This document shows positions 1 through 9,199 of a DNA stretch of 9,199 nt, in pieces. Each line of letters opens with the position of its first letter. Position 1 is the stretch's first letter. The notes beneath the pieces were generated by a model. It saw only the letters and a program-made list of their open reading frames with translations, searched no databases and had not been told where the DNA came from. The stretch is from a virus (lineage: Duplodnaviria > Heunggongvirae > Uroviricota > Caudoviricetes): positions 1 through 9,199 of the IMG/VR virus record IMGVR_UViG_2602041549_000006; one strand, written 5' to 3'. The position numbers were made by a program, and so were the translations under genes.

Positions 1-107
1 GATTCAGGGGGCCAGTCTAGAACATGATTCGCTTATCCCAGTAGTCATTACACAGGCGATACTCTTCCGTTTTCTCACCTGACTTCATCTGGTCGAAATA
101 TTCACCG

Positions 108-410
108 TTAACTGCCAGTTGAAGGTTGGCCACGACCTTCCTCCTTTGGCTTGTGAATTTGTATCGTCATGCCGCTTTGAGTGGTGACTACAATGACAGA
201 ACCAGGCTGAAGGCTGTTAAGATTGAATGCTTCGTAAAACGAATCCAATGCCAGTGCTTTTTTATTCTTTCGGTTCCACCAACGCCATCCCTTGCTACAG
301 GCTACATCGACAATCCACTGTACACTCCTGTAAGCCATATAAAACCAGATGAGCAAAACCTGAAGGAATGCTATCCAGTCAATAATCGTATATTTCGCGA
401 AGGAGTCCAT
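108..410 (-). CDS. Small hypothetical protein (about 100 aa) with one strongly hydrophobic N-terminal segment (IIDWIAFLQVLLIWFYMAY); probable small membrane protein
   Basis: ORF 108..413 in the track begins with GTG at 413; the ATG at 410-408 is preceded by a strong SD (AGGAGGTGA) and overlaps the upstream stop as TGATG. No recognisable domain. Confidence 0.45.
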   Translation of the reverse strand: MDSFAKYTIIDWIAFLQVLLIWFYMAYRSVQWIVDVACSKGWRWWNRKNKKALALDSFYEAFNLNSLQPGSVIVVTTQSGMTIQIHKPKEEGRGQPSTGS

Positions 411-919
411 CACTTCACCTCCTGCTGCGGTGCTGCTGGCATTTCACGCCAGTGCGTAACTGAGTGCGGATCCGGATATTCGGTGCCATCATCCCAGCGA
501 TTGCCATTCCACATTGCAGACCACATCTCACCGTCTTCATACATGACCATTACCGGAATTAACTTATCCGGCATTCGCTCACTACAGCTTATCCAACCAT
601 CCGGAGTTGCCGGAGAATTGCCATTTACCAAGTCAGCTCGAACATATAGCGTGTCATCATGGTGCTGATTGTGGCTGCACCACGTTAATTCGCTTAACTC
701 GCCATCTTCTGGCCATACTCCAGCCGTTTGCAGCCAGATATGGGCTGGCGCATCTTGGCAAGGTGTATTAACTGGCAACTTGTAAGTTTGGCTTACAGGT
801 TCTGCTCCCAGTGATGCCAGTGCAATCCGTGCCACTTCCATTTGTTCGCCACGGGTAAGCCCGTTATCAAGCGGATTTTTAATGGATAATTCAATACGTT
901 CTTTGGTAATAGTGGTCAT
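410..919 (-). CDS. Phage accessory protein, DUF551-like C-terminal region (169 aa)
   Basis: ATG at 919-917 with AAGGA upstream. The C-terminal stretch GWISCSERMPD...THWREMPAAP resembles the DUF551 pattern common in enterobacterial prophage early-left regions (recalled from memory). Stop overlaps the next start. Confidence 0.55.
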   Translation of the reverse strand: MTTITKERIELSIKNPLDNGLTRGEQMEVARIALASLGAEPVSQTYKLPVNTPCQDAPAHIWLQTAGVWPEDGELSELTWCSHNQHHDDTLYVRADLVNGNSPATPDGWISCSERMPDKLIPVMVMYEDGEMWSAMWNGNRWDDGTEYPDPHSVTHWREMPAAPQQEVK

Positions 920-1431
920 GCCGCGTTTCCTTCTTTCTTATTAACAATTACACCGTCATATATTTCATTAAGGTGCCCTCTCAACTCCATACGCCTTAAT
1001 GCAAATAACATGTAATCGCATTCAACCTGCTTATTTCCAGTAAATGGCTTATCGTCAGGATTACCCCAACAGCAATTACCCTTGGGCCACCCATGTACTT
1101 TCCGTACTCTTCCGTTAACAACGTGAAGTAATCCCCAGCCGGGAGGTAAATCCTCAACTGAAATAATTCCCGGCTCACTAATAAAGAATCGCCAGTCGCC
1201 CATTCCAAGAGATGGATTTTTACGAAAACGCTTTTTTCTATCTGCCAACAAGTCAGCACGAGAACACTTCGCCTCTATCAGGCATGATGCTGAATTTCTG
1301 AATCCCATAGCATCTGGCTGTTCTCCGGTACTGGTTACAGCTATAAAGCGGTCATGAAAACAAACCTTGAACCCATTGCGCTTAAGGAACTTATACGCAA
1401 TCTGACAGAGTTCGCGGTGTGTTAACGCCAT
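916..1431 (-). CDS. Hypothetical protein (171 aa) with a PD-x12-ExK arrangement (PDAMGF ... LIEAK); possible PD-(D/E)XK-fold nuclease
   Basis: Track ORF 916..1767 overlaps the upstream gene; the internal ATG at 1431-1429 has an AAGGAG SD and sits 1 nt after the upstream TGA stop. The motif was read directly from the translation; the fold assignment is inference. Confidence 0.5.
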   Translation of the reverse strand: MALTHRELCQIAYKFLKRNGFKVCFHDRFIAVTSTGEQPDAMGFRNSASCLIEAKCSRADLLADRKKRFRKNPSLGMGDWRFFISEPGIISVEDLPPGWGLLHVVNGRVRKVHGWPKGNCCWGNPDDKPFTGNKQVECDYMLFALRRMELRGHLNEIYDGVIVNKKEGNAA

Positions 1432-1432
1432 A

Positions 1433-2053
1433 TCACTCTCCTTTGATGCGAATGCCAGCTGCGCTTGCTGATTCTTCATATGCGCGTTTAGCAGCGTTAA
1501 GGATTGCTGCCAGTGGCGTATAGCCGCCATCCATTCGGATTGTGTTGTGGATGCCAGCCATTGTGTCGCGCAATTTGCTGTGGCTAGCAGACAGTTCTGC
1601 AATGCGCTTCTCTGCGGCTTCCAGCTTCTCGCGCATATCGTCAACGTACTCGACCAGAGATCCGCCAGCAGGAATTTCGCATTCCTCGACCAGTTGGAAG
1701 TAGATATCAGCTGCGGCCCGTGTGTTGCTATGCCTAGCGTCGCCCATCTCACCTTCACGAAGAGCATCGCGTTCGGCGGTAAGATTGGCTATTTTGCTGT
1801 CTTTGCCTTCCAGCTCAACGCGCAGCCTCCCTACCGTTAGCGCAATATCCTCGTTCTCCTGATCGCGGCTTTTGATGTATTGCAGGTTTCTTTCCCGTTC
1901 ATCCAACAATGCCAGCGCGATATCTGGCGAAAAGTGCTTCATAAAATCGTTAAGCGCATTAATTCGCTGATCGAAAGGCATTACAGGTGCTTCACCAGCA
2001 ATTTTTGTTTTTTCAGCGATTTCACGAAGCTTTTGATAATCAATCTTGCTCAT
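1433..2053 (-). CDS. Ead/Ea22-like phage protein (206 aa) with a coiled-coil segment
   Basis: The N-terminus MSKIDYQKLREIAEK matches the typical start of Ead/Ea22-like prophage proteins (recalled). AAGGAG SD present; ATGA overlap with the upstream gene's stop. Confidence 0.6.
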   Translation of the reverse strand: MSKIDYQKLREIAEKTKIAGEAPVMPFDQRINALNDFMKHFSPDIALALLDERERNLQYIKSRDQENEDIALTVGRLRVELEGKDSKIANLTAERDALREGEMGDARHSNTRAAADIYFQLVEECEIPAGGSLVEYVDDMREKLEAAEKRIAELSASHSKLRDTMAGIHNTIRMDGGYTPLAAILNAAKRAYEESASAAGIRIKGE

Positions 2054-2889
2054 TGGATGACTCCTTTACGAAGCTGTTCGGCGATATCTTCGAGAACGCC
2101 ATCAGAGAATGAACGGTCAAAATCGCCTTCCGGCGCATTAGCCATAAACTCAGTAGAGGTAAGAATCATCCGGGCAATATCCGCGGCGTTCTTCGCAGTA
2201 TCATCAATAAAACCAGCTTCCCAGGCAGCCAGCATTCTGTTCGCCACAAAGTAAGCGCCCTCCTTGCGTGCTTCAGTCTTCACTTCAGCCAGGAAAGCAT
2301 CGGTGGCTGGGGTGTCTGATTGCAGAGACTTTGCGCGATAGTCATTCCACCCTCTTGCATACATGGGATTAACTTGCACTCCATCTTTTACGCAATATGC
2401 CTGCCCTCCACGGTTGATAACCTTGATTTCGTCCATAGCGCCAGACTTCATCCCCGCATTCTCCGCTGCCAGCTCCGCGCACTTGGCCTCAAGAGCGGCA
2501 ACCACTTCCTGATGGTCTTTGTACTTAACGTATGAGCCGGAGATGTCATCACCTTCGGTGTTTAGCCATGCGTCATTGCAATTCACTGCGTAGGTTCTGA
2601 TGCTCTCCCGCCTATGACAGACGCCAGGCCAGTCAATAAAGTATCCGCATTCCTTCTCAGATTGCTTAAGCGATGTATTTTCAGCAGCCATCTTCGCGCA
2701 TTTAGCCTCAAGGTTATCAATCGTGATTCCAGCAGAACGACACTCCCGCAACGCCGTTTCCAGTTTTGATTCAAGTTCACCGAACTTACGGACAAGATAT
2801 TCAGCGTTTGTTTCGTTAACCTTTAAATCACTTGGGATGCATTTACCTTTCAGAAAACCATCCATCTCAATTAGTGACATTTGTTTCAT
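2050..2889 (-). CDS. Coiled-coil phage protein with an internal tandem duplication (Ea22-like region); start ambiguous
   Basis: Long minus-strand ORF. The track start at 2907 is GTG with no SD; the ATG at 2889 has GGAG upstream, so either could be real. The motif LEAKCAxxAAEN occurs twice in the protein and is visible as a DNA repeat (2476-2495 versus 2697-2715). Confidence 0.5.
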   Translation of the reverse strand: MKQMSLIEMDGFLKGKCIPSDLKVNETNAEYLVRKFGELESKLETALRECRSAGITIDNLEAKCAKMAAENTSLKQSEKECGYFIDWPGVCHRRESIRTYAVNCNDAWLNTEGDDISGSYVKYKDHQEVVAALEAKCAELAAENAGMKSGAMDEIKVINRGGQAYCVKDGVQVNPMYARGWNDYRAKSLQSDTPATDAFLAEVKTEARKEGAYFVANRMLAAWEAGFIDDTAKNAADIARMILTSTEFMANAPEGDFDRSFSDGVLEDIAEQLRKGVIQ

Positions 2890-2983
2890 TTCTTCCCACT
2901 CCGCCACATCGCATTCAGATATTTGTTGTCATTAACAGAACCGAAACTCTTTCTCTTAAGCAAGTCCTCTCATGGTAAATTCC

Positions 2984-3277
2984 TCAGTCATTACTGATAG
3001 CGCCATAACGTGAGCGGTAATTACGCAGGCGCGGGTCAATTTCAGGGAAGTGGGTATATGTGGCTTTGCGGAATGGTCGGATTGATGTCTGGTAAATTCG
3101 CTCGCGTTCTTCTTTCTCTGCAAGCCATATACAATGGCGAAATTCCTTTTCCTCTTTCGTTTCCTGCGGTATCGACATTATCAGGTTGTAGTTTTTCCTG
3201 AATTTATCCAGCACCTCCGATACGGAATTGCCGGAACATCGGCGCGCGTCATCCGCACCATACAGAGGCGCTGGCAT
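2984..3277 (-). CDS. Hypothetical small phage protein (97 aa)
   Basis: ATG at 3277-3275 preceded by an AGGAG SD; same orientation and tight spacing with neighbouring genes. No recognisable domain. Confidence 0.5.
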   Translation of the reverse strand: MPAPLYGADDARRCSGNSVSEVLDKFRKNYNLIMSIPQETKEEKEFRHCIWLAEKEERERIYQTSIRPFRKATYTHFPEIDPRLRNYRSRYGAISND

Positions 3278-3293
3278 GGTTTTCTCCTGTTGA

Positions 3294-3842
3294 TTATTTA
3301 GCTAACTTTTTCCAGATCGCTGAAACGTATTTGGCTTGGTGAATGGCATCATCAAGCGCGTTGTGGCGAGTTCCTTTGAATGGCATATCTCGCTTAGGGT
3401 CGAATCCTATTACCTTCCCAAGTTCGACGATTGTTCTTACGTCGCGGTCATTCCACCACTGCCACGGAACTGGCTGCCCTGTCAGCGAATAACTGTTTCG
3501 GAGAATAACGCAGTCAAATGATGCTCCATTCCCCCAAACCTGAACGAATTTGTGGTTAGCGTTCTTTATGATGAATTCAGATAACCATGAAAGAGCCGTT
3601 GAAAGCTCCTGAGTGTTGCTGGTTAGCGATTTTCTGGCTTCTTCACTCTGTTCCAGCCACCATAAAATCGTTGAAGCGTCAGGACGCGCTCGATATCGCA
3701 TTGATGACTCAAGCGAGATATTTACCGAGAACTCTTCTCCTGTTTCTCCGGTATTCGGGTCAAAGAATACCGCCCCAATAGAAATAACTGGCGCGTATGG
3801 CCCGTTGCCCATTGTTTCAAGGTCAACCATCAAGTGATTCAT
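3294..3842 (-). CDS. 3'-5' exonuclease, DEDD(h)/DnaQ-like fold (182 aa)
   Basis: N-terminal MVDLETMG (Exo I motif, D-x-E) and C-terminal HNALDDA (Exo III motif, H-x4-D) read from the translation. AAGGA SD upstream of the ATG at 3842. Confidence 0.7.
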   Translation of the reverse strand: MNHLMVDLETMGNGPYAPVISIGAVFFDPNTGETGEEFSVNISLESSMRYRARPDASTILWWLEQSEEARKSLTSNTQELSTALSWLSEFIIKNANHKFVQVWGNGASFDCVILRNSYSLTGQPVPWQWWNDRDVRTIVELGKVIGFDPKRDMPFKGTRHNALDDAIHQAKYVSAIWKKLAK

Positions 3843-3850
3843 GTAAGTCC

Positions 3851-4330
3851 TTAAATTGCGTGAATAGCGTGACGAGGGAAGGGGAGAGTTACTGGCTCCT
3901 CGTCTGGGTAGATAGGTTTGTTATGTTTGTGCCACTCGACATGACATGACTTGCAGAGCCACATCACATCGGTTGGTTTGCTGTAGTCGCAGTGGTGCGC
4001 CTGTGGTTTACATTCTGATCCGCAGCACTCACATTGTGGTGGTCGGATTAGCTTACCGTCGCGCAAAAAATTACCCACAATGATGTGGGCTTTTCTTTTC
4101 CATGGGTTGCTCTGAATGAACCGCTTTTTGGCTGCGTTACACCGTTCTCTTCCGCGTTCCGATGATTGATATTCTCTCCTTGCTGATACTCGATGTGGCA
4201 ATCCAGCGCGTTCTTTGTCGTATTCAGCCAGGCAAGCCCGGCAAGCGGCAGTTAATCCATCTCTGGATGCTCTTCTGATTTGAAAGTCCCTTTCTTCCTT
4301 ATGTTGATGGCATCTTGAGCAGATTTTCAT
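3851..4330 (-). CDS. HNH endonuclease (159 aa), zinc-binding, free-standing
   Basis: C-terminal QCECCG ... AHHCDYSKP ... WLCKSCHVEWH gives the HNH catalytic His pair plus Cys4-type metal ligands; additional CxxC pairs at the N-terminus. AGGAG SD upstream. Confidence 0.7.
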   Translation of the reverse strand: MKICSRCHQHKEERDFQIRRASRDGLTAACRACLAEYDKERAGLPHRVSARREYQSSERGRERCNAAKKRFIQSNPWKRKAHIIVGNFLRDGKLIRPPQCECCGSECKPQAHHCDYSKPTDVMWLCKSCHVEWHKHNKPIYPDEEPVTLPFPRHAIHAI

Positions 4331-4339
4331 ATTCAGCTC

Positions 4340-4813
4340 CTAGAACGGAATATCCGAATCGTCGAAGTTCATAGGTGGTTCGCTGTGATTCCCATGCTGC
4401 TGAGATTGCTGTCTTTGTTGCTGGCCGTTATTTCGCTGAGGTGAAGACTGTTCATTGCCTCCTTGCTTGCCACCAAGCATTTGCATGGTTCCACCAACGC
4501 CTACGATAACTTCGGTAGTGAACCGATCCTGTCCACTTTGATCCTGCCATTTTCTTGTCCGCAATTTGCCTTCAAGATAAACCTCTGAGCCTTTCCGCAG
4601 ATACTCGCTGGCAATTTCTGCCAGTTTCCCGCTCATTACCACACGGTGCCACTCCGTCTGCTCCTTTTGCTCTCCAGTTTGCTTATCACGCCATTGTTCT
4701 GACGTAGCAACTGTAAGGTTTGCAAATGCCGTTCCTGATGGTGAATATCTGATTTCTGGATCATGCCCAAGGCGACCAATAATGATCACCTTATTTACGC
4801 CTCTGCTTGCCAT
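4340..4813 (-). CDS. ssb: Single-stranded DNA-binding protein SSB (157 aa)
   Basis: OB-fold N-terminus ([17 protein letters not shown]...), Gly/Gln-rich linker and the canonical acidic tail DDSDIPF. Confidence 0.9.
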
Positions 4814-5521
4814 TTATGCCGCCTGTTTTAGCTCGTTAACTCTGATGTTCATTACCTGAACGCATTTAGCCTGCGCATCCTCATTGCCAGCCATTAATTG
4901 CCAGTCACGCTGATAACGCTCTATGAGTTTTTTCTTGTCAGTTTCTGTTGATGCATAATCGCTGAAGTCTTTCAGGATTTGTTCGCAGTCAACCGATGGA
5001 GATTTCTGGTTGGTATTTTCTGGTGATGGTTTGTTATCTGATGCTGGGATTGCCCATCCCGGCAGCGATGGAGGGAGCCAGTAAAATCCTGTTCCATCCT
5101 TCAGTTTTGCCCTGTGCCACCCCTGCTTTTTATCGAGAGATGTTTGTGCGAAACCTTCCTCAAGGTTATACAGATACCGACCGATTCCCCATTGAACGGC
5201 AGCACGCTTCATTGCACCGGAACGACCACCTTTGACGGCTTCTACCTGCGTGTTTTCAGCAGCATCCCATTTGGTTACCCATTCGGAATCAATCTTGATT
5301 GATATGCCGCATTCAACTCCGCCGTTGTTGGGAATATCGCGGTATTCATTGCGCCATCCTGCTTTGCCGCAAACATCGTCCAGGCGTTTCATGATTGCCC
5401 GGTTCGTGACATAAGCCAGCACCATAGCCCACACCTTGCCATCGCGTGTTTTACCGCTTTGCTGTATTCGCCATTCGATATCTTCAGGGCTGAATGGCTC
5501 ATCGAATTTGTTCAAATCCAT
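4814..5521 (-). CDS. Single-strand annealing recombinase, Rad52/Sak-like family (235 aa); functional analogue of lambda Bet / P22 Erf
   Basis: Motifs GWRNEY, GGVECGISI and AVQWGIGRYLY fit Rad52-family annealing proteins (recalled). Sits immediately upstream of ssb, with a GAGGTGA SD. Confidence 0.65.
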   Translation of the reverse strand: MDLNKFDEPFSPEDIEWRIQQSGKTRDGKVWAMVLAYVTNRAIMKRLDDVCGKAGWRNEYRDIPNNGGVECGISIKIDSEWVTKWDAAENTQVEAVKGGRSGAMKRAAVQWGIGRYLYNLEEGFAQTSLDKKQGWHRAKLKDGTGFYWLPPSLPGWAIPASDNKPSPENTNQKSPSVDCEQILKDFSDYASTETDKKKLIERYQRDWQLMAGNEDAQAKCVQVMNIRVNELKQAA

Positions 5522-5620
5522 AATTCACCTCAGAATGGACACGGCCCAAGAAAATAACGCTGATTTAATACTTCGACTCGGGACAAATTAAGGCATACCC
5601 GCATTCCTTCGCGGTCACCA

Positions 5621-5779
5621 TTATGGCGATACCAGAGAGCTTTCTGCGTGTACATGCGTCTCTGTAACTTGCTCTCCTTCACTGTGGTTGCAAGTGACAT
5701 GAATATCTCCTTCGTTACCGATTAATTCTTTCATCTGACGAATGAATTCTTCGTCTGACCATTTATCTGTAAAACTCAT
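5621..5779 (-). CDS. Small protein (52 aa) in the kil position, downstream of and translationally coupled to cIII; function unknown
   Basis: ATG at 5779-5777 overlaps the cIII stop as ATGA. Assignment is by position only; the longer track ORF 5621..5809 would overlap cIII by 34 nt. Confidence 0.35.
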   Translation of the reverse strand: MSFTDKWSDEEFIRQMKELIGNEGDIHVTCNHSEGEQVTETHVHAESSLVSP

Positions 5780-5946
5780 GGACGGCCTTGTTGTTTCAAA
5801 ATATCCCAAAGCTTTTCGAGCAAACTTTTCATTCTTGGTTGTTTAAAGTCTGCTCCGGTTAAAATGTTTTTTCGTGAATGCTGTACCGATAAAATCGGGT
5901 TGAAAGGGCGAACCGATGCCGCCCCTGCAATAGCGAACTGTTGCAT
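5776..5946 (-). CDS. cIII: CIII-like protein (56 aa); regulator that protects CII from FtsH
   Basis: Internal ATG at 5946-5944 with an AAGGAG SD. The protein MQQFAIAGAAS...LLEKLWDILKQQGRP resembles lambda CIII (MQYAIAGW...LIDILNQPGVP) in start, length and C-terminus. The longer track ORF would read through the terminator hairpin. Confidence 0.65.
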   Translation of the reverse strand: MQQFAIAGAASVRPFNPILSVQHSRKNILTGADFKQPRMKSLLEKLWDILKQQGRP

Positions 5947-6011
5947 AGGATGCTCCTTCTGTTTGATTGCATAACGAAAACGCCTCGAGTGAAGCGTTAT
6001 TGGTATGCATA

Positions 6012-6036
6012 TAAAAAAGCCCTCACACTGGAGGGC
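6012..6036 (-). terminator. Intrinsic terminator on the minus strand (tL1-like), downstream of the N plus orf156 unit
   Basis: The minus strand reads GCCCTC-cagtgt-GAGGGC followed by TTTTTTAT: a 6-bp GC stem, 6-nt loop and T6 tract. There is no T-tract on the plus-strand side. Confidence 0.6.
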
Positions 6037-6098
6037 AAAGAAGATTTCCAATAATCAGAACAAGTCGGCTCCTGTTTAGTTACGAGCGACATTGCTCC

Positions 6099-6126
6099 GT
6101 GTATTCACTCGTTGGAATGAATACAC
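6099..6126. repeat. Perfect 9-bp inverted repeat (GTGTATTCA-N10-TGAATACAC) just 3' of orf156
   Basis: Read directly from the sequence; no adjacent U-tract, so not a classical terminator. Confidence 0.5.
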
Positions 6127-6140
6127 AGTGCTTATTCGTA

Positions 6141-6611
6141 CTAATAAAACACCCAGTTTTCTGTTTCTTGGTTGTGTCCAAAGTTATATTCAATACCTGG
6201 TGTTGATGTATCAATATTCTTCATCCCATCAACAAGAGTTGATACAACAGCCAAATCTTGTTTGATTCTCATCAAATGGTATTTCTTCCGGCGCAATAAA
6301 CTTTCAATGGCAAGTTTCTTCGTCGGGAATGCAAAAGATCTTTCTGCATTTTTTGCTACTTTCTTAATTGCATATCTATTTCTCCTTTGTTTCCATTCCT
6401 GTAACCACTGATTTGGTGCTGGTTTAAAATTAACAATCCAATGCGCAGGAACCAACCATGCATAATGCTCTGTCTGATGAAAAGCTATATATTGAAGTGC
6501 GAATATTTTGATTCCATCTTCTTCAACTGTCGCTTGGAATCTCCAGAAAACAGGCATTCCATCATGTTCAGTTTCTGATTCAGGAAAAGGTACGCTCCAT
6601 GATTTTGTCAT
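6141..6611 (-). CDS. Hypothetical protein (156 aa), AT-rich moron in the ral/sieB position directly after N; function unknown
   Basis: ATG at 6611-6609 with SD GAGGTGA overlapping the N stop codon. The segment is visibly AT-rich compared with its flanks. No recognisable domain, no transmembrane segment. Confidence 0.6.
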   Translation of the reverse strand: MTKSWSVPFPESETEHDGMPVFWRFQATVEEDGIKIFALQYIAFHQTEHYAWLVPAHWIVNFKPAPNQWLQEWKQRRNRYAIKKVAKNAERSFAFPTKKLAIESLLRRKKYHLMRIKQDLAVVSTLVDGMKNIDTSTPGIEYNFGHNQETENWVFY

Positions 6612-6619
6612 ATATCACC

Positions 6620-6955
6620 TCAAATAAGTGGTTTGCTGCCTAATTTCATTTTCTGGCGACCAACACAAGTCACACCCATTTCACTGCGTGGCTTGCGGTA
6701 GTAAATACGATTCTGTTTACTCTCGACTTCATCTGCCTTCTTGCAGCGAAGGATTCCGAGTGATATTGCTTTTTCAGAAAGGCTTAAACGCTTTCTTGGG
6801 GCTTCCTGAACAGGTTCCTCACTGTCTGTGCCGAAGATAGAATCAATGATGTTGCAGATGGCATCACGCTCGATAGCCAGCTTTCTGCGCCGCTCATGAC
6901 GGCGAGTTTTGGCATTTCCTGCAAATGTTGATTTCCCGTACACGATTACCGTCAT
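6620..6955 (-). CDS. N: Antitermination protein N (112 aa) with a P22-type arginine-rich motif and a lambda-like C-terminus
   Basis: The N-terminus MTVIVYGKSTFAGNAKTRRHERRRKLAIER matches the P22 N ARM peptide (recalled); the C-terminus YYRKPRSEMGVTCVGRQKMKLGSKPLI parallels the lambda N C-terminus (WYSKPGERGITCSGRQKIKGKSIPLI). ATG at 6955 with AGGA upstream; the track ORF extends to 7039. Confidence 0.85.
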   Translation of the reverse strand: MTVIVYGKSTFAGNAKTRRHERRRKLAIERDAICNIIDSIFGTDSEEPVQEAPRKRLSLSEKAISLGILRCKKADEVESKQNRIYYRKPRSEMGVTCVGRQKMKLGSKPLI

Positions 6956-7074
6956 GATGTTTTCCTCATGTGAAATGGCTTTGGTGGTGATGCGCCAGAT
7001 GCTGATCTTCTGGTTGCTGTCGTTGCAGCTGCAATTCACATCACCGCCAAATCCATCTCGTTTGGTATCTGTTT

Positions 7075-7109
7075 GCGCTTTGTCAGCGCCCCATCGAAGT
7101 TAAAGAGCA
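7075..7109 (-). promoter_or_regulatory. nutL: boxA (TGCTCTTTA) and boxB hairpin (GCGCTGACAAAGCGC)
   Basis: On the minus strand: boxA-like TGCTCTTTA, a 12-nt spacer, then a 4-bp GCGC stem closing a loop that contains GACAA. This matches my recollection of P22 nutL boxB. It lies between the predicted PL and N. Confidence 0.7.
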
Positions 7110-7154
7110 TGCCAATCTGTTCCGTTTGGCTTCCAGCTTCCTGCTGATGGCTAA

Positions 7155-7183
7155 ATAGTACGATGTGTACTTTATTGAGTCAA
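7155..7183 (-). promoter_or_regulatory. PL candidate: -35 TTGACT (7178-7183), 17-bp spacer, -10 TACTAT (7155-7160), overlapped by operator-like palindromes
   Basis: Hexamers read on the minus strand. The 13-bp perfect palindrome TATTGAGTCAATA (7173-7185) overlaps the -35 and AGTAC-N5-GTACT (7157-7171) overlaps the -10/spacer. Confidence 0.5.
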
Positions 7184-7242
7184 TACAAAATGTTCTAAAT
7201 ATAATTAGTTTTTTATAACGCTTTGTATTTAATAGGTTTATA

Positions 7243-7278
7243 TTTTGGAAAAAGAAAACCCGACGCTAAGGTCGGGTT
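7243..7278 (-). terminator. Intrinsic terminator downstream of cI (weaker on the plus strand)
   Basis: 8-bp stem AACCCGAC/GTCGGGTT with a 6-nt loop; on the minus strand it is followed by TTCTTTTTCC, on the plus strand by ATTGTTGTGTATTTT. Confidence 0.6.
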
Positions 7279-7308
7279 ATTGTTGTGTATTTTAGAGTTG
7301 TGAGGCTG

Positions 7309-7968
7309 TTAACTAAATGTCTCTTCAGGCCACTGGCTGGCGATAACTTTCCCTACTACGGAACAGCTATCATTGCATGGAATCATTGGATATTGCGGGT
7401 TTAGTGGCTGTAGGAACACCTGACCGCTATCCCTGATCAGTTTCTTGAAGGTAAACTCATCACCTCCAAGTCTGGCTATGCAAAAATCACCGGGCTCAAT
7501 AGCCTGCTCAGGGTCAACAAGAATTAACATCCCGTCAGGAAAGCTTGGCTTGGATCCTGTTGGCGCGGTCATGGAATTACCTTCAACCTCAAGCCAGAAT
7601 GCAGAATCACTGGCTTTTTTGGTTGTGCTTACCCATCTCTCCGCATCACCTTTGGTAAAGGTTCTAAGCTCAGGCGAGAACATCCCGGCCTGAACATGAG
7701 AAAAAACAGGGTACTCATATTGTTTTTTAACGGGGGCAGATGAGTATTCGCCAACAGGTGAAAATGTACCGTCGTGGTTGAATGAGACGTTATCAATACC
7801 AAGGTATTTAAACACCACACCAATCTCGTCAAGAGATGGATGACGAGATCCGCGCAACCAGTGACCAATTCCACCCTGCGTCATACCAAGCTCTTCAGCT
7901 AACTTCTCTTGAGTTATGCCGAGTTCTTTCATTCTGGATCTAGCCAGTTCATACCATTTCATTTTCAT
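7309..7968 (-). CDS. cI: CI-type prophage repressor (219 aa): non-lambda N-terminal HTH domain fused to a lambda-cI-like LexA/S24 C-terminal domain
   Basis: The C-terminal about 130 aa ([19 protein letters not shown] ... [12 protein letters not shown]) is near-identical to lambda cI as I recall it, including the Ala-Gly cleavage site and the Ser and Lys of the catalytic dyad; the N-terminal about 85 aa is different. ATG at 7968-7966 with an AAGGA SD; the track ORF extends to 8043. Confidence 0.9.
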
Positions 7969-8024
7969 ATCCTTATTATTACGCTCTGTACTAAAACCAT
8001 CCATGCACAAGATGTATTTTTTGT

Positions 8025-8053
8025 TTGCATTCCAAAAGTACATATCGTATTAT
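8025..8053 (+). promoter_or_regulatory. PR candidate: -35 TTGCAT (8025-8030), 17 bp, -10 TATTAT (8048-8053), inside the OR region 7969-8079
   Basis: Best sigma70-like match on the plus strand upstream of cro; SD GGAGGG at 8071-8076. Operator half-sites could not be defined confidently; AGTACATATCGTATT (8036-8050) and ATTACGCTCTGTACT (7979-7993) resemble the OL element. Confidence 0.4.
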
Positions 8054-8079
8054 TGTTTCATGATTACTATGGAGGGCAT

Positions 8080-8295
8080 ATGAGCAACCTACGAAAATAT
8101 CGAGAGTCACTGAATATCTCTCAAACAACACTTGCTAAGGCGGTTGGATGCACACAGGGAGCTATCGGACATTGGGAATCTGGTCGTCGCTTCCCAGACC
8201 TTAAAACATGCCGTGCTCTTGTTGCGTGCCTAAACAAGTTAGGCGCAAAAGTCAGTCTTGATGACGTGTTCCCACCGGAACACAAAGCCGCTTAA
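8080..8295 (+). CDS. cro: Cro-like HTH repressor (71 aa)
   Basis: Divergent from cI across a 111-bp operator region; ATG at 8080 with a GGAGGG SD; HTH segment QTTLAKAVGCTQGAIGHWESG. The track ORF 7909..8295 is an upstream extension without an SD. Confidence 0.8.
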   Translation: MSNLRKYRESLNISQTTLAKAVGCTQGAIGHWESGRRFPDLKTCRALVACLNKLGAKVSLDDVFPPEHKAA

Positions 8296-8305
8296 TAAGC
8301 GGATC

Positions 8306-8340
8306 CGCTCTTTATCAATCTGCACCGCCGACAACGCGGT
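8306..8340 (+). promoter_or_regulatory. nutR: boxA (CGCTCTTTA, 8306-8314) and boxB hairpin (ACCGC-cGACAAc-GCGGT, 8324-8340)
   Basis: Consensus boxA followed 9 nt later by a 5-bp stem whose loop contains GACAA, the same loop core as the nutL boxB, as expected for a P22-type N. Confidence 0.7.
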
Positions 8341-8352
8341 AACTAATTAAGC

Positions 8353-8385
8353 ACTCATCGAAAGATGAGTATTAGTGATTATTTA
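8353..8385 (+). terminator. tR1-position hairpin (ACTCATC-GAAA-GATGAGT) followed by a weakly T-rich tract
   Basis: 7-bp stem with a GAAA tetraloop between nutR and cII; the downstream tract ATTAGTGATTATTTA is only moderately U-rich, so this may be a weak or N-suppressible terminator. Confidence 0.35.
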
Positions 8386-8394
8386 CCTATGGAA

Positions 8395-8437
8395 ATAGTA
8401 AGAAATGGAACAAACAAGTTACAGCAAACTATCACAG
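8395..8437 (-). promoter_or_regulatory. PRE-like CII-dependent promoter: TTGC-N6-TTGT box (8424-8437) and -10 TACTAT (8395-8400)
   Basis: On the minus strand TTGCtgtaacTTGT lies at codons 7-11 of cII, analogous to the lambda TTGC-N6-TTGC site in early cII codons; a 17-bp spacer then TACTAT. Confidence 0.4.
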
Positions 8438-8701
8438 CGCGATGTTGATCGCGCAGAAACAGATTTACTTATCAACCTGTCAACGCTTACACAGCGCGGT
8501 CTGGCAAAGATGATTGGCTGTCATGAATCGAAGATAAGCAGAACGGACTGGAGATTTATTGCTTCGGTCTTGTGTGCTTTCGGAATGGCATCAGACATCA
8601 GTCCGATTAGCAGGGCTTTTAAGTATGCGCTTGATGGACTCACCAATAAAAAACGCCCGGCGGCAACCGAGCGTTCTTATCAAATACAAATGGAATTTTA
8701 A
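8405..8701 (+). CDS. cII: CII transcriptional activator (98 aa)
   Basis: The C-terminus LTNKKRPAATERSYQIQMEF is nearly identical to lambda CII (ILTNKKRPAATERSEQIQMEF, recalled); length and position after cro and nutR fit. Confidence 0.9.
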   Translation: MEQTSYSKLSQRDVDRAETDLLINLSTLTQRGLAKMIGCHESKISRTDWRFIASVLCAFGMASDISPISRAFKYALDGLTNKKRPAATERSYQIQMEF

Positions 8702-8712
8702 CAACATCCAGC
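8646..8712 (-). ncRNA. OOP-like antisense RNA overlapping the 3' end of cII (terminator 8645-8673, putative -10 TATAAT at 8719-8724)
   Basis: On the minus strand: stem CGCUCGG/CCGGGCG (one G-U pair), loop UUGCCG, then UUUUUUAUU; matches my recollection of the lambda oop terminator. A TATAAT hexamer lies about 70 nt upstream on the minus strand. The 5' end is inferred. Confidence 0.5.
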
Positions 8713-8723
8713 GAGGTAATTAT

Positions 8724-8867
8724 ATGCGAAAAACGCAGGAAAATAAACGCGTTAATCACCGAAAAGATGTGCTACGTGACCAGTTTTATCAGGGGGTTAA
8801 TCCAGCAATAGCTGTGCCACTGAGAGAAATACTTAACAGGTACAAAACTTCGGAGAAGTCAAAATGA
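8724..8867 (+). CDS. Small hypothetical basic protein (47 aa) between cII and the replication gene
   Basis: ATG at 8724 with a GAGGT SD; stop overlaps the next start as ATGA. The track ORF 8559..8867 extends upstream into cII in another frame. Confidence 0.4.
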   Translation: MRKTQENKRVNHRKDVLRDQFYQGVNPAIAVPLREILNRYKTSEKSK

Positions 8868-9199
8868 GCATGAATCTTATGGCTAAGGCCATGAATATAA
8901 AGGTTGGCAACCCACTGAGAAAACTGGTTCTGATTAAACTTGCCGATAACGCCAATGATAATGGCGAATGCTGGCCTTCATATCAACATGTCGCTGACCA
9001 GTGTGAGGTGAGCAGATCGACAGTAAAAAGTCACATTAGGGCACTGGAAGAGATGGGGCTTTTGAAAAGGGAATTCAGAAGAAAAGGAGAGCTTAACCAG
9101 TCAAACGTTTTTTATCTGACGCTGGATAATGCACAACAAATCCAACCAGAATCAGGTGGGGCAGGAGCTGCCCGGGGTGGGGCAGGAGCTGCCCGGGGT
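8864..9199 (+). CDS. Replication initiator, O-like, with N-terminal winged-HTH (5' partial, runs off the window end)
   Basis: Open frame from the ATG at 8864 to the window end (112 codons, no stop). The translation MSMNLMAKAMNIKVGNPLRKLVLIKLADNANDNGECWPSYQHVADQCEVSRSTVKSHIRALEEMGLLKR is HTH-like and the gene is in the O position; iteron-like repeats lie inside it. Confidence 0.65.
   Translation, partial: MSMNLMAKAMNIKVGNPLRKLVLIKLADNANDNGECWPSYQHVADQCEVSRSTVKSHIRALEEMGLLKREFRRKGELNQSNVFYLTLDNAQQIQPESGGAGAARGGAGAARG
9155..9199 (+). repeat. Iteron-like direct repeats (putative ori): 21-bp unit GGTGGGGCAGGAGCTGCCCGG, two exact copies plus the start of a third at the window edge
   Basis: Exact tandem copies at 9155-9175 and 9176-9196; each unit contains the dyad GGGCAG-gag-CTGCCC. 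In frame they encode a Gly/Ala-rich linker (GGAGAARG repeated). Confidence 0.6.

Follow-up and report, generated by a model that had tools for sequence, protein, structure and literature searches.

A probable early-left recombination module of a lambdoid phage with a Rad52-type annealing protein, SSB, Abc2 and two predicted nucleases

Results

Gene content and position of the module

The window analysed here is a stretch of 9,199 nucleotides (positions 1 to 9,199 of IMG/VR virus record IMGVR_UViG_2602041549_000006). Four tightly packed genes, all on the minus strand, fill positions 3294-5521. An earlier note on this DNA had described an annealing protein, an SSB and an exonuclease here; all three are real minus-strand open reading frames (4814-5521, 4340-4813 and 3294-3842), and a fourth gene, at 3851-4330, had been overlooked. 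The features of the region are:

5621-5779, minus strand: overlapping 52-aa ORF in another frame, Sf6 gp30 / HK97 gp42.1 family (PHROG 2123, 1.3e-40)
5530-5700, minus strand: conserved 56-aa gene, Sf6 gp29 / HK97 gp42 family (PHROG 1723, 9.4e-36)
4814-5521, minus strand: predicted single-strand annealing protein, 235 aa, Rad52/Sak-type N-terminal domain and Erf-type C-terminal domain
4340-4813, minus strand: ssb, phage single-stranded DNA-binding protein, 157 aa (PF00436, 1.7e-38)
3851-4330, minus strand: predicted HNH-like nuclease, 159 aa, Cys/His-rich, N-terminal zinc ribbon and C-terminal HNH-like motif
3294-3842, minus strand: predicted DEDDh 3'-5' exonuclease, DexA / Rv2179c-like family, 182 aa (PF16473, 2.9e-73)
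2984-3277, minus strand: abc2, anti-RecBCD protein, 97 aa (Pfam Anti-RecBCD_p2, PF11043, 6.7e-63)

The order in the module is small ORFs, Rad52-type annealing protein, SSB, HNH cassette, DexA-like exonuclease and Abc2, with an intergenic spacing of 0-16 bases. Profile searches identified N, cIII-like, cI, cro-like and cII genes in the window, and a promoter scan placed a PL-like promoter at 7183-7155 and detected no promoter-like site within the module. The region is probably a recombination ('Rec') module, belonging to the early-left (PL) operon, under N antitermination, of a temperate lambdoid phage of E. coli. None of the ORFs scanned matched a Gam, lambda Exo, RecE, RecT or ERF profile, the search for Gam, Exo and RecE covering Pfam and PHROG. 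The description of the module as non-lambda is true but unremarkable, modules of this type being standard in P22-like and HK97-like lambdoid phages.

The stretch 5522-5620 had been noted as holding no ORF of 60 aa or more, which is literally correct, but the stretch is coding: a check for small ORFs showed that it is covered by the 3' half of the conserved 56-aa gene. This gene is found at full length in 69 phage records at 100% to 48% identity, has a PGAP annotation in an E. coli prophage, and in 88%-identical variants has substitutions at codon positions 3, 1 and 2 in a ratio of about 12:6:2. It occupies the arf position of P22; homology to P22 Arf was rejected on the lack of a Phage_Arf match, the P22 Arf control scoring 1.9e-35. 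The 52-aa ORF, annotated in Sf6 and mEpX2, overlaps the 56-aa gene by 80 bases. The few substitutions outside the overlap sit at its own third codon positions, and the pattern within the overlap follows the other frame. Searches of 5522-5620 with Rfam (E<=1) and with tRNA, promoter and terminator scans gave no sRNA, tRNA, promoter or terminator.

The annealing protein belongs to the Rad52/Rad22 family

The 235-aa protein is a member of the Rad52/Rad22 (Sak-type) family, and annealing activity is predicted from this membership. Residues 4-136 score 91.9 bits (cutoff 20.3; E 5.1e-26) with Rad52_Rad22 (PF04098), the sole Pfam match even at E<=10, and all 120 listed homologues carry the same domain. 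The assignment to a Rad52/Sak-like family made in the earlier note therefore stands, and the outcome that would have spoken against it, placement with RecT/Redbeta or Erf, did not occur: the RecT and Redbeta profiles of Pfam gave no match at E<=10. ERF (PF04404) was likewise rejected as the identity of the annealing domain, with no match at E<=10 and a P22 Erf control at 4.6e-46.

The annealing domain (approximately residues 4-136), whose core has the beta-beta-beta-alpha layout of the Rad52-type fold, is followed by a short beta segment and then by a disordered linker, which leads to a three-helix C-terminal domain (179-234). Residues K105 and R106 do not vary among 30 homologues. Searches against PDB sequences, with the single sequence or with a profile, found nothing significant, and the link to solved structures was reached by fold comparison only. 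Identity to the solved Rad52-type annealases, Sak of Staphylococcus phage 80alpha, human RAD52 and yeast Mgm101, is 11-17%. Unlike these proteins, the window protein has a C-terminal domain of the P22 Erf type, residues 157-235 being 65% identical to that of P22 Erf; hence the 'Erf-like' names in PHROGs and GenBank.

The SSB and an HNH cassette at the 3' end of its gene

The ATG start codon of ssb lies directly 3' of the stop codon of the annealing-protein gene. The phage has its own SSB, as had been proposed: the product matches PF00436 with 131.3 bits (cutoff 26) and TIGR00621 with 181.5 bits (cutoff 53.95), and ends in a canonical acidic tip, ...NFDDSDIPF.

The 159-aa product of the next gene matches a PHROG 'endonuclease' family at 5.7e-47. 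Its motif CxxC...HH...CxxCH...H is conserved across 36 sequences with 34-87% identity to the window query, with C100, C103, H112, H113, D115, H130 and H134 invariant and C126 and C129 kept in at least 90%. Neither single-sequence nor profile searches against PDB sequences found anything significant, and Foldseek with a model of the protein gave no significant match.

The gene sits exactly after the IPF codon of ssb, and its last 14 codons and stop codon are the original ssb 3' end. In a tally in which some contigs were fetched twice, all 37 SSBs with an HNH neighbour end at ...DIPF, and all 122 without one have 15 more residues, APVTLPFPRHAIHAI or a single-residue variant. In the window and in Sf6 the HNH protein ends in the last 14 of these 15 residues, and the junctions are identical between the 37 sequences with the cassette and the 122 without it. 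The 42 bases concerned are almost invariant at the DNA level, which allows no inference on selection acting on the extension. In the HNH-less ssb allele, the sequence around the putative target reads ...GATATACCCTTTGCACCAGTAACTCTC....

Homologues of the HNH protein are present in 513 phage records at unrelated positions (Vibrio, Staphylococcus, Bacillus and other phages), one of which is the intron-bearing polA / I-KsaII locus. Two lineages, 47-48% identical to the window protein, also end in the ssb-derived tail, one identically and one with a single substitution, and three loci have apparent, putative premature stops in the HNH frame. The gene is preceded by a strong AGGAG ribosome-binding site. 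Like a free-standing homing endonuclease, it is present or absent at one precise site and sporadically distributed. The HNH gene is most likely a selfish, homing-endonuclease-like mobile insertion and not a core component of the module; cleavage and homing are predicted activities.

The exonuclease is a relative of T4 DexA

The 182-aa protein falls in the DexA / Rv2179c-like family of DEDDh exonucleases, and 3'-5' polarity is predicted for it. It matches PF16473 over the full length with 245.7 bits (cutoff 27), a family with both DNase (T4 DexA) and RNase (Rv2179c of M. tuberculosis) members, and it matches the T4 DexA structures 8KEL and 8KEN at 9.5e-14. Residues D7, E9 and D110 align to D7, E9 and D119 of DexA. 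H160 and D165 lie past the end of the alignment and are assigned from an H-x4-D spacing that matches H186/D191 of DexA. These features bear out the earlier family call (DEDD, 3'-5' type) and place the protein in the same DEDDh fold family as DexA (PDB 8KEL) and Rv2179c. The window enzyme is 31% identical to T4 DexA (tblastn), is shorter (182 vs 227 aa) and is without the loop bearing D90, a residue needed for the DexA tetramer, which falls in a gap of the alignment. W152 of DexA is conserved, as W130. D169 of DexA aligns to F147, an Asp occurring only at the next position. The gene has an AAGGA Shine-Dalgarno-like sequence and begins after an 8-base gap from the upstream stop codon.

Among the 80 loci retrieved with the exonuclease, 76 also hold this SSB, the Rad52-type annealing protein or both. 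Pairing with other annealase types in close relatives was considered and rejected; the three loci without a Rad52-type gene (L096, L155 and L158) are uninformative, resembling prophage remnants that have undergone rearrangement or deletion. In distant phages the same exonuclease family adjoins DNA polymerases, a Gp2.5-type annealase or an integrase, and not Rad52-type genes.

Abc2 is encoded next to the exonuclease

The last gene of the module, abc2, lies outside the interval first described and begins 16 bases downstream of the exonuclease gene. Its product matches PF11043 over residues 1-97 of 97 with 209.4 bits (cutoff 25) and is 92% identical to P22 Abc2. Abc2 is the functional counterpart of lambda Gam. 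The statement that no Gam-like ORF is visible was right in that no Gam homologue was found, but misleading, since the Gam analogue adjoins at 2984-3277. Abc2 binding to RecC and the conversion of RecBCD are summarised in PMC5928155 and in PMC12315714. A reference cited in PMC5928155 reports that Abc2 also functions with lambda Bet; nothing therefore requires Abc2 to be tied specifically to the C-terminal domain that is shared.

Distribution and related modules

The 80 annealing-protein loci closest to that of the window all encode SSB and Abc2; the exonuclease is present in 30, HNH in 18, both nucleases in 4 and neither in 36, rough frequencies, as these IMG/VR loci are redundant and many are E. 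coli prophages. The core machine is probably the annealing protein, the SSB and Abc2-modified host RecBCD, because SSB and Abc2 are constant in this set and the two nucleases are not; the exonuclease is accessory. The five-gene arrangement recurs unchanged in phage Bas106, at 98.5% identity. Of the two nuclease genes, Sf6 has just HNH, and mEpX2 and epsilon34 just the exonuclease, which N7 and IME10 lack as well as Sf6. Roughly 20% of complete E. coli genomes contain parts of the module, and in 100 of 5426 the coverage of the five-gene query reaches at least 80%.

The module is already known: it is annotated in many sequenced phages, with the RefSeq product names 'Rad52/Rad22 family DNA repair protein', '3'-5' exonuclease', 'ssb' and 'phage anti-RecBCD protein', and a survey of lambdoid Rec modules published in Genome Research in 2025 describes it and explicitly lists DnaQ-like and HNH nucleases within annealing-protein/SSB/Abc2 modules (PMC12315714). 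The Rec modules of epsilon34, mEpX2 and mEp235 consist of annealing protein, SSB-1, DnaQ-like nuclease and Abc2, and those of Sf6 and ES18 have HNH in place of DnaQ; the survey names both the 'ES18 functional type' and states that the Sf6/ES18-type proteins are without experimental study (PMC12315714). The window shares the genes, their order, the early-left operon position and 90-98% DNA identity with these modules, and differs in carrying both nucleases, a form also seen in Bas106 and in the four double-nuclease IMG/VR loci. The survey of 325 phages found two genes of one function in three phages only, none of these being a pair of HNH and DnaQ (PMC12315714).

The P22 module (arf-erf-abc1-abc2) occupies the same operon position and shares Abc2 (92%) and the C-terminal domain of the annealing protein (65%). 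Neither module has a lambda Exo-type nuclease, and resection in the window module, as in P22, is predicted to be left to Abc2-modified RecBCD. The annealing domain is ERF (PF04404) in P22 and Rad52_Rad22 in the window, where ssb, with or without HNH and exonuclease, stands instead of abc1, and unrelated small ORFs instead of arf. Lambda Red (exo-bet-gam) lies at the same genomic position and has the same task, to shield ends from RecBCD, make single strands and anneal them. The window has no Exo, Bet or Gam homologue and encodes its own SSB; RecBCD would be modified in this module and not blocked, and the sole exonuclease is optional and of predicted 3'-5' polarity.

Discussion

Lambda divides end protection and resection between Gam and Exo. 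In the window module, going by what is known of the families, Abc2 would bind RecC of host RecBCD after infection or induction. RecBCD so bound would stop destroying phage DNA ends and become a resection activity yielding 3' single-stranded tails. The phage SSB would coat the single strands and the Rad52-type protein would anneal complementary ones, its C-terminal helical domain, also found in P22 Erf, possibly serving as a partner-docking domain. In the analogous HK620 module the cognate SSB stimulates the phage annealase (PMC5928155). The DexA-like exonuclease appears dispensable and would most likely trim annealed intermediates at 3' non-homologous tails or flaps, by analogy with T4 DexA, which works in intron homing via its 3'-5' activity (PMC12153337). 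Two views of the survey count against this scheme: DnaQ-type 3'-5' exonucleases usually inhibit homologous recombination, and tightly packed DnaQ and HNH genes are likely true module members (PMC12315714). The HNH gene, as a putative selfish insertion, would stand outside the core machine.

The role assigned to the exonuclease differs from that implied earlier, in which it replaces lambda Exo as a dedicated resection partner of opposite polarity, leaving 5' and not 3' tails, and no RecBCD inhibitor is needed. Its location within the module, 8-16 bases from its neighbours, and the 76 of 80 exonuclease-retrieved loci with this SSB, the annealing protein or both are consistent with such a partnership, and annealing proteins are not known to have an intrinsic strand-polarity requirement. 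This explanation is nevertheless most improbable, and wrong as far as the lack of RecBCD control is concerned: Abc2 is present, in all 80 of the closest annealing-protein loci, 50 of which (and Sf6, N7 and IME10) are without the exonuclease, and distant members of the exonuclease family have neighbours other than Rad52-type genes. It is very unlikely, too, that the enzyme merely hitch-hikes in the Rec module and acts, as an 'HREX'-type nuclease, against rival phages whose DNA is modified. The precedent is EcD, an E. coli DexA homologue that protects against T4 and is reported to digest 5hmC-containing T4 DNA (PMC12153337). The same paper lists WP_001016185.1 among 'bacterial' DexA homologues (PMC12153337), and this protein is the exonuclease product of an E. 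coli prophage module, with 98.6% DNA identity to that of the window. The retained W130 and the position of D90 in an alignment gap are in keeping with this role; the replacement of D169 by F147 is not. The window exonuclease is not the published EcD, whose cloning primers encode MIDTET... and not MNHLMVDLET.... The gene lies in the repressed PL operon without a promoter-like site of its own, so expression in a lysogen is not expected, and membership of a defence system was rejected, PADLOC giving weak generic DEDDh matches only (2e-4).

For the HNH protein, a true part in recombination would consist in nicking or cutting DNA to start annealing-protein-dependent recombination, as phage P1 Ref plays a DNA-cutting initiator role for RecA. 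Its tight packing and strong AGGAG site would suit such a component, and in the survey tightly packed DnaQ and HNH genes are viewed as likely true module members, the ES18-type HNH among them (PMC12315714). We consider this unlikely: HNH is found in only 18 of the 80 loci, homologues are scattered in unrelated phages and positions, including the intron-bearing polA locus, the last 14 codons and stop codon are borrowed from ssb, two lineages of 47-48% identity end in the same derived tail, and three loci may carry premature stops. These observations point to a selfish insertion.

The insertion could itself have consequences for the SSB, as SSB partners are known to read the free C-terminal tip. 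Most relatives hold ...DDDIPF internally, with the 15 extra residues (APVTLPFPRHAIHAI) after it, and insertion of HNH after the IPF codon would recreate a free ...DIPF end and move the extension onto the nuclease. The cassette would then be a switch on the phage SSB between two allelic states with different partner sets, possibly proteins of the host SSB interactome in one case and the phage's annealing protein and exonuclease in the other. We regard such a switch as unlikely; if true, a 'selfish' HNH insertion would alter how the module works.

The Rad52-type annealase with its cognate SSB provides candidate recombineering parts. The exonuclease-plus, HNH-plus, both and neither variants form a clean natural experiment on the role of a 3'-5' exonuclease in single-strand annealing.

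Organisation of the early-left operon

The window carries an immunity and early-left region of the lambdoid phage type, in which the following features were located.

Features of the immunity and early-left region
7309-8043, minus strand: cI-type repressor (Peptidase_S24 and HTH)
7183-7155, minus strand: PL-like promoter match (promoter scan)
6620-7039, minus strand: N antiterminator
Downstream of N, minus strand: cIII-like ORF
Plus strand: cro-like HTH gene
Plus strand: cII gene
5621-5779, minus strand: small ORF, 52 aa, overlapping 5530-5700
5530-5700, minus strand: small ORF, 56 aa (PHROG 1723)
4814-5521, minus strand: annealing protein, 235 aa (Rad52_Rad22)
4340-4813, minus strand: SSB, 157 aa (SSB profile)
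3851-4330, minus strand: HNH-like protein, 159 aa (Cys/His pattern in homologues)
3294-3842, minus strand: exonuclease, 182 aa (Rv2179c-like family)
2984-3277, minus strand: Abc2, 97 aa (PF11043)

The minus-strand genes after N are spaced by 0-16 bases, apart from the two overlapping small ORFs, and the promoter scan found no further promoter-like sites within the gene string downstream of N. Two terminator-like hairpins on the minus strand (6036-6019 and 5998-5979) immediately precede the cIII-like ORF, where lambda has its tL terminators. Expression of the recombination (Rec) module would require N-mediated antitermination through these hairpins. Elsewhere on this strand, a 283-aa ORF without a Pfam match shares a 335-base overlap with an Ead/Ea22-like gene (916-1767 and 1433-2053); its N-terminal third is probably untranslated, the internal Met of 'MALTHRELCQ...' being the likely true start.

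An earlier note had named a Rad52-like protein, an SSB and a DEDD 3'-5' exonuclease here; its observations were confirmed in part and its interpretation was supported in part. All three families were recovered, the SSB with Pfam SSB (1.7e-38) and TIGR00621 (181.5 bits), but the 159-aa ORF is a further gene within 3294-5521, making four. The statement that no Gam-like ORF is present holds by homology but not by function, since the next gene downstream encodes Abc2, known from P22 as an anti-RecBCD protein.

The stretch 5522-5620, described as lacking an ORF of 60 aa or more, does so literally, but it is the 3' half of the 56-aa ORF. The suggested search of this stretch for small ORFs or an sRNA thus returned an ORF, while Rfam, tRNA and promoter/terminator scans found nothing. 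The 56-aa ORF matches PHROG 1723 (9.4e-36), occurs at full length in 69 phage records with identities between 100% and 48%, is annotated by PGAP in an E. coli prophage, and shows substitutions at codon positions 3:1:2 of about 12:6:2 (5530-5620; 88%-identical variants). The two small ORFs are both conserved and share 80 bases, read in different frames; Sf6 and mEpX2 carry annotations for each. Within the overlap the substitution pattern tracks the 56-aa frame, the more downstream of the two. Their shared PHROG label, 'recombinase', is uninformative.

Domain architecture of the annealing protein

Rad52_Rad22 was the sole Pfam match of the 235-aa protein (E 5.1e-26; 91.9 bits, cutoff 20.3), with no ERF, RecT or Redbeta match at E<=10. 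A database search returned 5593 relatives; PF04098 was present in 120/120 of those listed, many of them named 'Rad52/Rad22 family DNA repair protein'. The Rad52 assignment therefore stands against the RecT/Redbeta or Erf assignment that the earlier note had set against it. Residues 157-235, predicted to form three helices, share 65% identity with P22 Erf residues 134-205, a stretch called outside Erf's own ERF domain (residues 5-146). On these alignments the protein is a domain chimera, with a Rad52-type annealing domain and an Erf-type C-terminal domain (window 4814-5051; 3255-3470 in the compared locus L172), and the Erf-type C-terminus accounts for its being called 'Erf-like' by PHROGs and GenBank. 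In phage annealases, the C-terminal domain is considered a docking site for SSB and the partner exonuclease (PMC11611040).

A WW-domain-like segment, GWHRAKLKDGTGFYWLPPSLPGWAIP, was also seen within residues 129-160 (window about 5044-5137). It matches the Prp40 WW domain weakly (E 0.03-0.1) and is modelled as three short strands; W148, P151, P154 and W156 are invariant among homologues. The resemblance may be fortuitous, or the segment may be a small docking element.

The HNH gene and its insertion at the 3' end of ssb

The 159-aa protein has no Pfam or NCBIfam match, and its gene lacks annotation in an E. coli prophage of 98.6% identity (PGAP) and in the N7 GenBank record (window 3851-4330; retrieved loci L006 2368-2847 and L005 2956-3457). 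It is nevertheless a real gene, as Sf6 gp26 is 99.4% identical and homologues occur in 513 phage records. Across 36 homologues (34-87% identity), C100, C103, H112, H113, D115, H130 and H134 are invariant and C4, C7, C30, C33, C126 and C129 nearly so, a pattern that reads as a putative zinc ribbon with an HNH motif after it. An AF2 model of high confidence (pLDDT 93) gave no significant Foldseek match. Homologues are scattered among unrelated phages and positions, such as the intron-bearing polA/I-KsaII locus of Staphylococcus K-like phages.

SSB of the window ends canonically (...DDSDIPF). Where the HNH gene is absent, as in mEpX2 and epsilon34, SSB has 168 aa and ends ...DDDIPF-APVTLPFPRHAIHAI, so that the canonical tip is internal; where it is present, as in the window and Sf6, SSB stops directly after IPF and the HNH protein ends ...EE-PVTLPFPRHAIHAI. 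The 3' end of the HNH gene reuses an essentially identical 42 bases, together with the stop codon, from the longer ssb allele: its last 14 codons are those of that allele, and the insertion point directly follows the IPF codon (window 3851-4339 and 4340-4360; loci L007-L165; L002 4032-4100). Among the retrieved IMG/VR loci, 122/122 HNH-less sequences had the long SSB form or a single-residue variant and 37/37 HNH-containing sequences the short ...DIPF form, without exception, in a tally where some contigs were counted twice and the sequences are therefore only partly independent. The ssb-derived tail is carried by two HNH lineages that share only 47-48% identity with the window protein, identically in one and with a single substitution in the other; it is absent from the remaining family members compared. 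This junction pattern indicates a mobile cassette targeting one site, and the tail explains the GenBank note that Sf6 gp26 has 14 contiguous residues in common with 'E. coli SSB'.

The exonuclease

The 182-aa protein matches the Rv2179c-like family over its full length (2.9e-73). Among solved structures, T4 DexA (8KEL/8KEN, E 9.5e-14) is the nearest relative; by tblastn the protein is 31% identical to T4 dexA, with 1855 phage records matched in total. D7, E9 and D110 align with DexA catalytic D7, E9 and D119, and H160/D165, past the end of the alignment, keep the H-x4-D spacing of DexA H186/D191, indicating a DEDDh enzyme. Neighbours of DexA-like genes in distant phages are DNA polymerases, a Gp2.5-type annealase or integrase, which points to a general DNA-metabolism accessory rather than a fixed Rad52-type partner.

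The 'bacterial' DexA homologues in supplementary file 3 of PMC12153337 include WP_001016185.1, the exonuclease of the E. coli prophage module L006, 98.6% DNA-identical to that of the window. At least some of the listed 'bacterial defence' homologues are thus phage early genes.

Module composition and proposed roles

Protein families, gene order, operon context and co-occurrence were observed directly. In the 80 closest annealing-protein loci, SSB and Abc2 each occurred in 80/80, the exonuclease in 30/80, HNH in 18/80, both nucleases in 4/80 and neither in 36/80; ssb-abc2 spacing takes four discrete values, matching the four nuclease combinations. Bas106 has all five genes (98.5% identity), Sf6 only HNH, and mEpX2, mEp235 and epsilon34 only the exonuclease. 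Parts of the module were found in 1107/5426 complete E. coli genomes, and >=80% of the five-gene query was covered in 100/5426.

Abc2 binds RecC and turns host RecBCD into a resection activity (Murphy 2000 via PMC5928155; PMC12315714), and in the analogous HK620 module the annealase is stimulated by its cognate SSB (PMC5928155). From this established knowledge of the families, Abc2 would convert host RecBCD to resection, SSB would coat the 3' tails and the Rad52-type protein would anneal complementary strands. The exonuclease would then trim 3' non-homologous tails or flaps, the favoured role and the least secure step, by analogy with T4 DexA and the part that its 3'-5' activity plays in intron homing (PMC12153337).

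That the exonuclease is instead a resection partner with reversed polarity is contradicted by its optional occurrence beside an invariably present Abc2. A function as a 'HREX'-type nuclease against modified-DNA phages is very improbable: protection against T4 has been published for the E. coli protein EcD, and WP_001016185.1 is among the homologues in the same study (PMC12153337), but EcD differs in sequence and the exonuclease gene belongs to the repressed PL operon and has no promoter of its own. For the HNH protein, a genuine part in initiating recombination is the view favoured in PMC12315714; set against the mobility signature of the cassette, we consider it unlikely.

Comparison with known systems

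Abc2 of P22 is 92% identical to that of the window (PF11043, 6.7e-63), and P22 and the window module have both Abc2 and the Erf C-terminal domain in common. A survey of 325 lambdoid phages (PMC12315714, Genome Research 2025) defines a Rec module by its combination of SSB, nuclease, strand-annealing protein and anti-RecBCD, and places DnaQ-like 3'-5' nucleases (in epsilon34) and HNH nucleases (in ES18) among the genes packed into such modules; 25 phages have all four functions and 27 the same without a nuclease. Both nucleases in one module is the sole window feature unlisted in the main text of that survey, and this form also occurs in Bas106 and elsewhere. Four of the module proteins are already correctly named in RefSeq. 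The module is ordinary and already known, and therefore of low interest as such. Worth keeping are the chimeric Rad52/Erf architecture of the annealing protein, and the unannotated HNH cassette at the IPF codon of ssb with the two forms of the SSB C-terminus that result.
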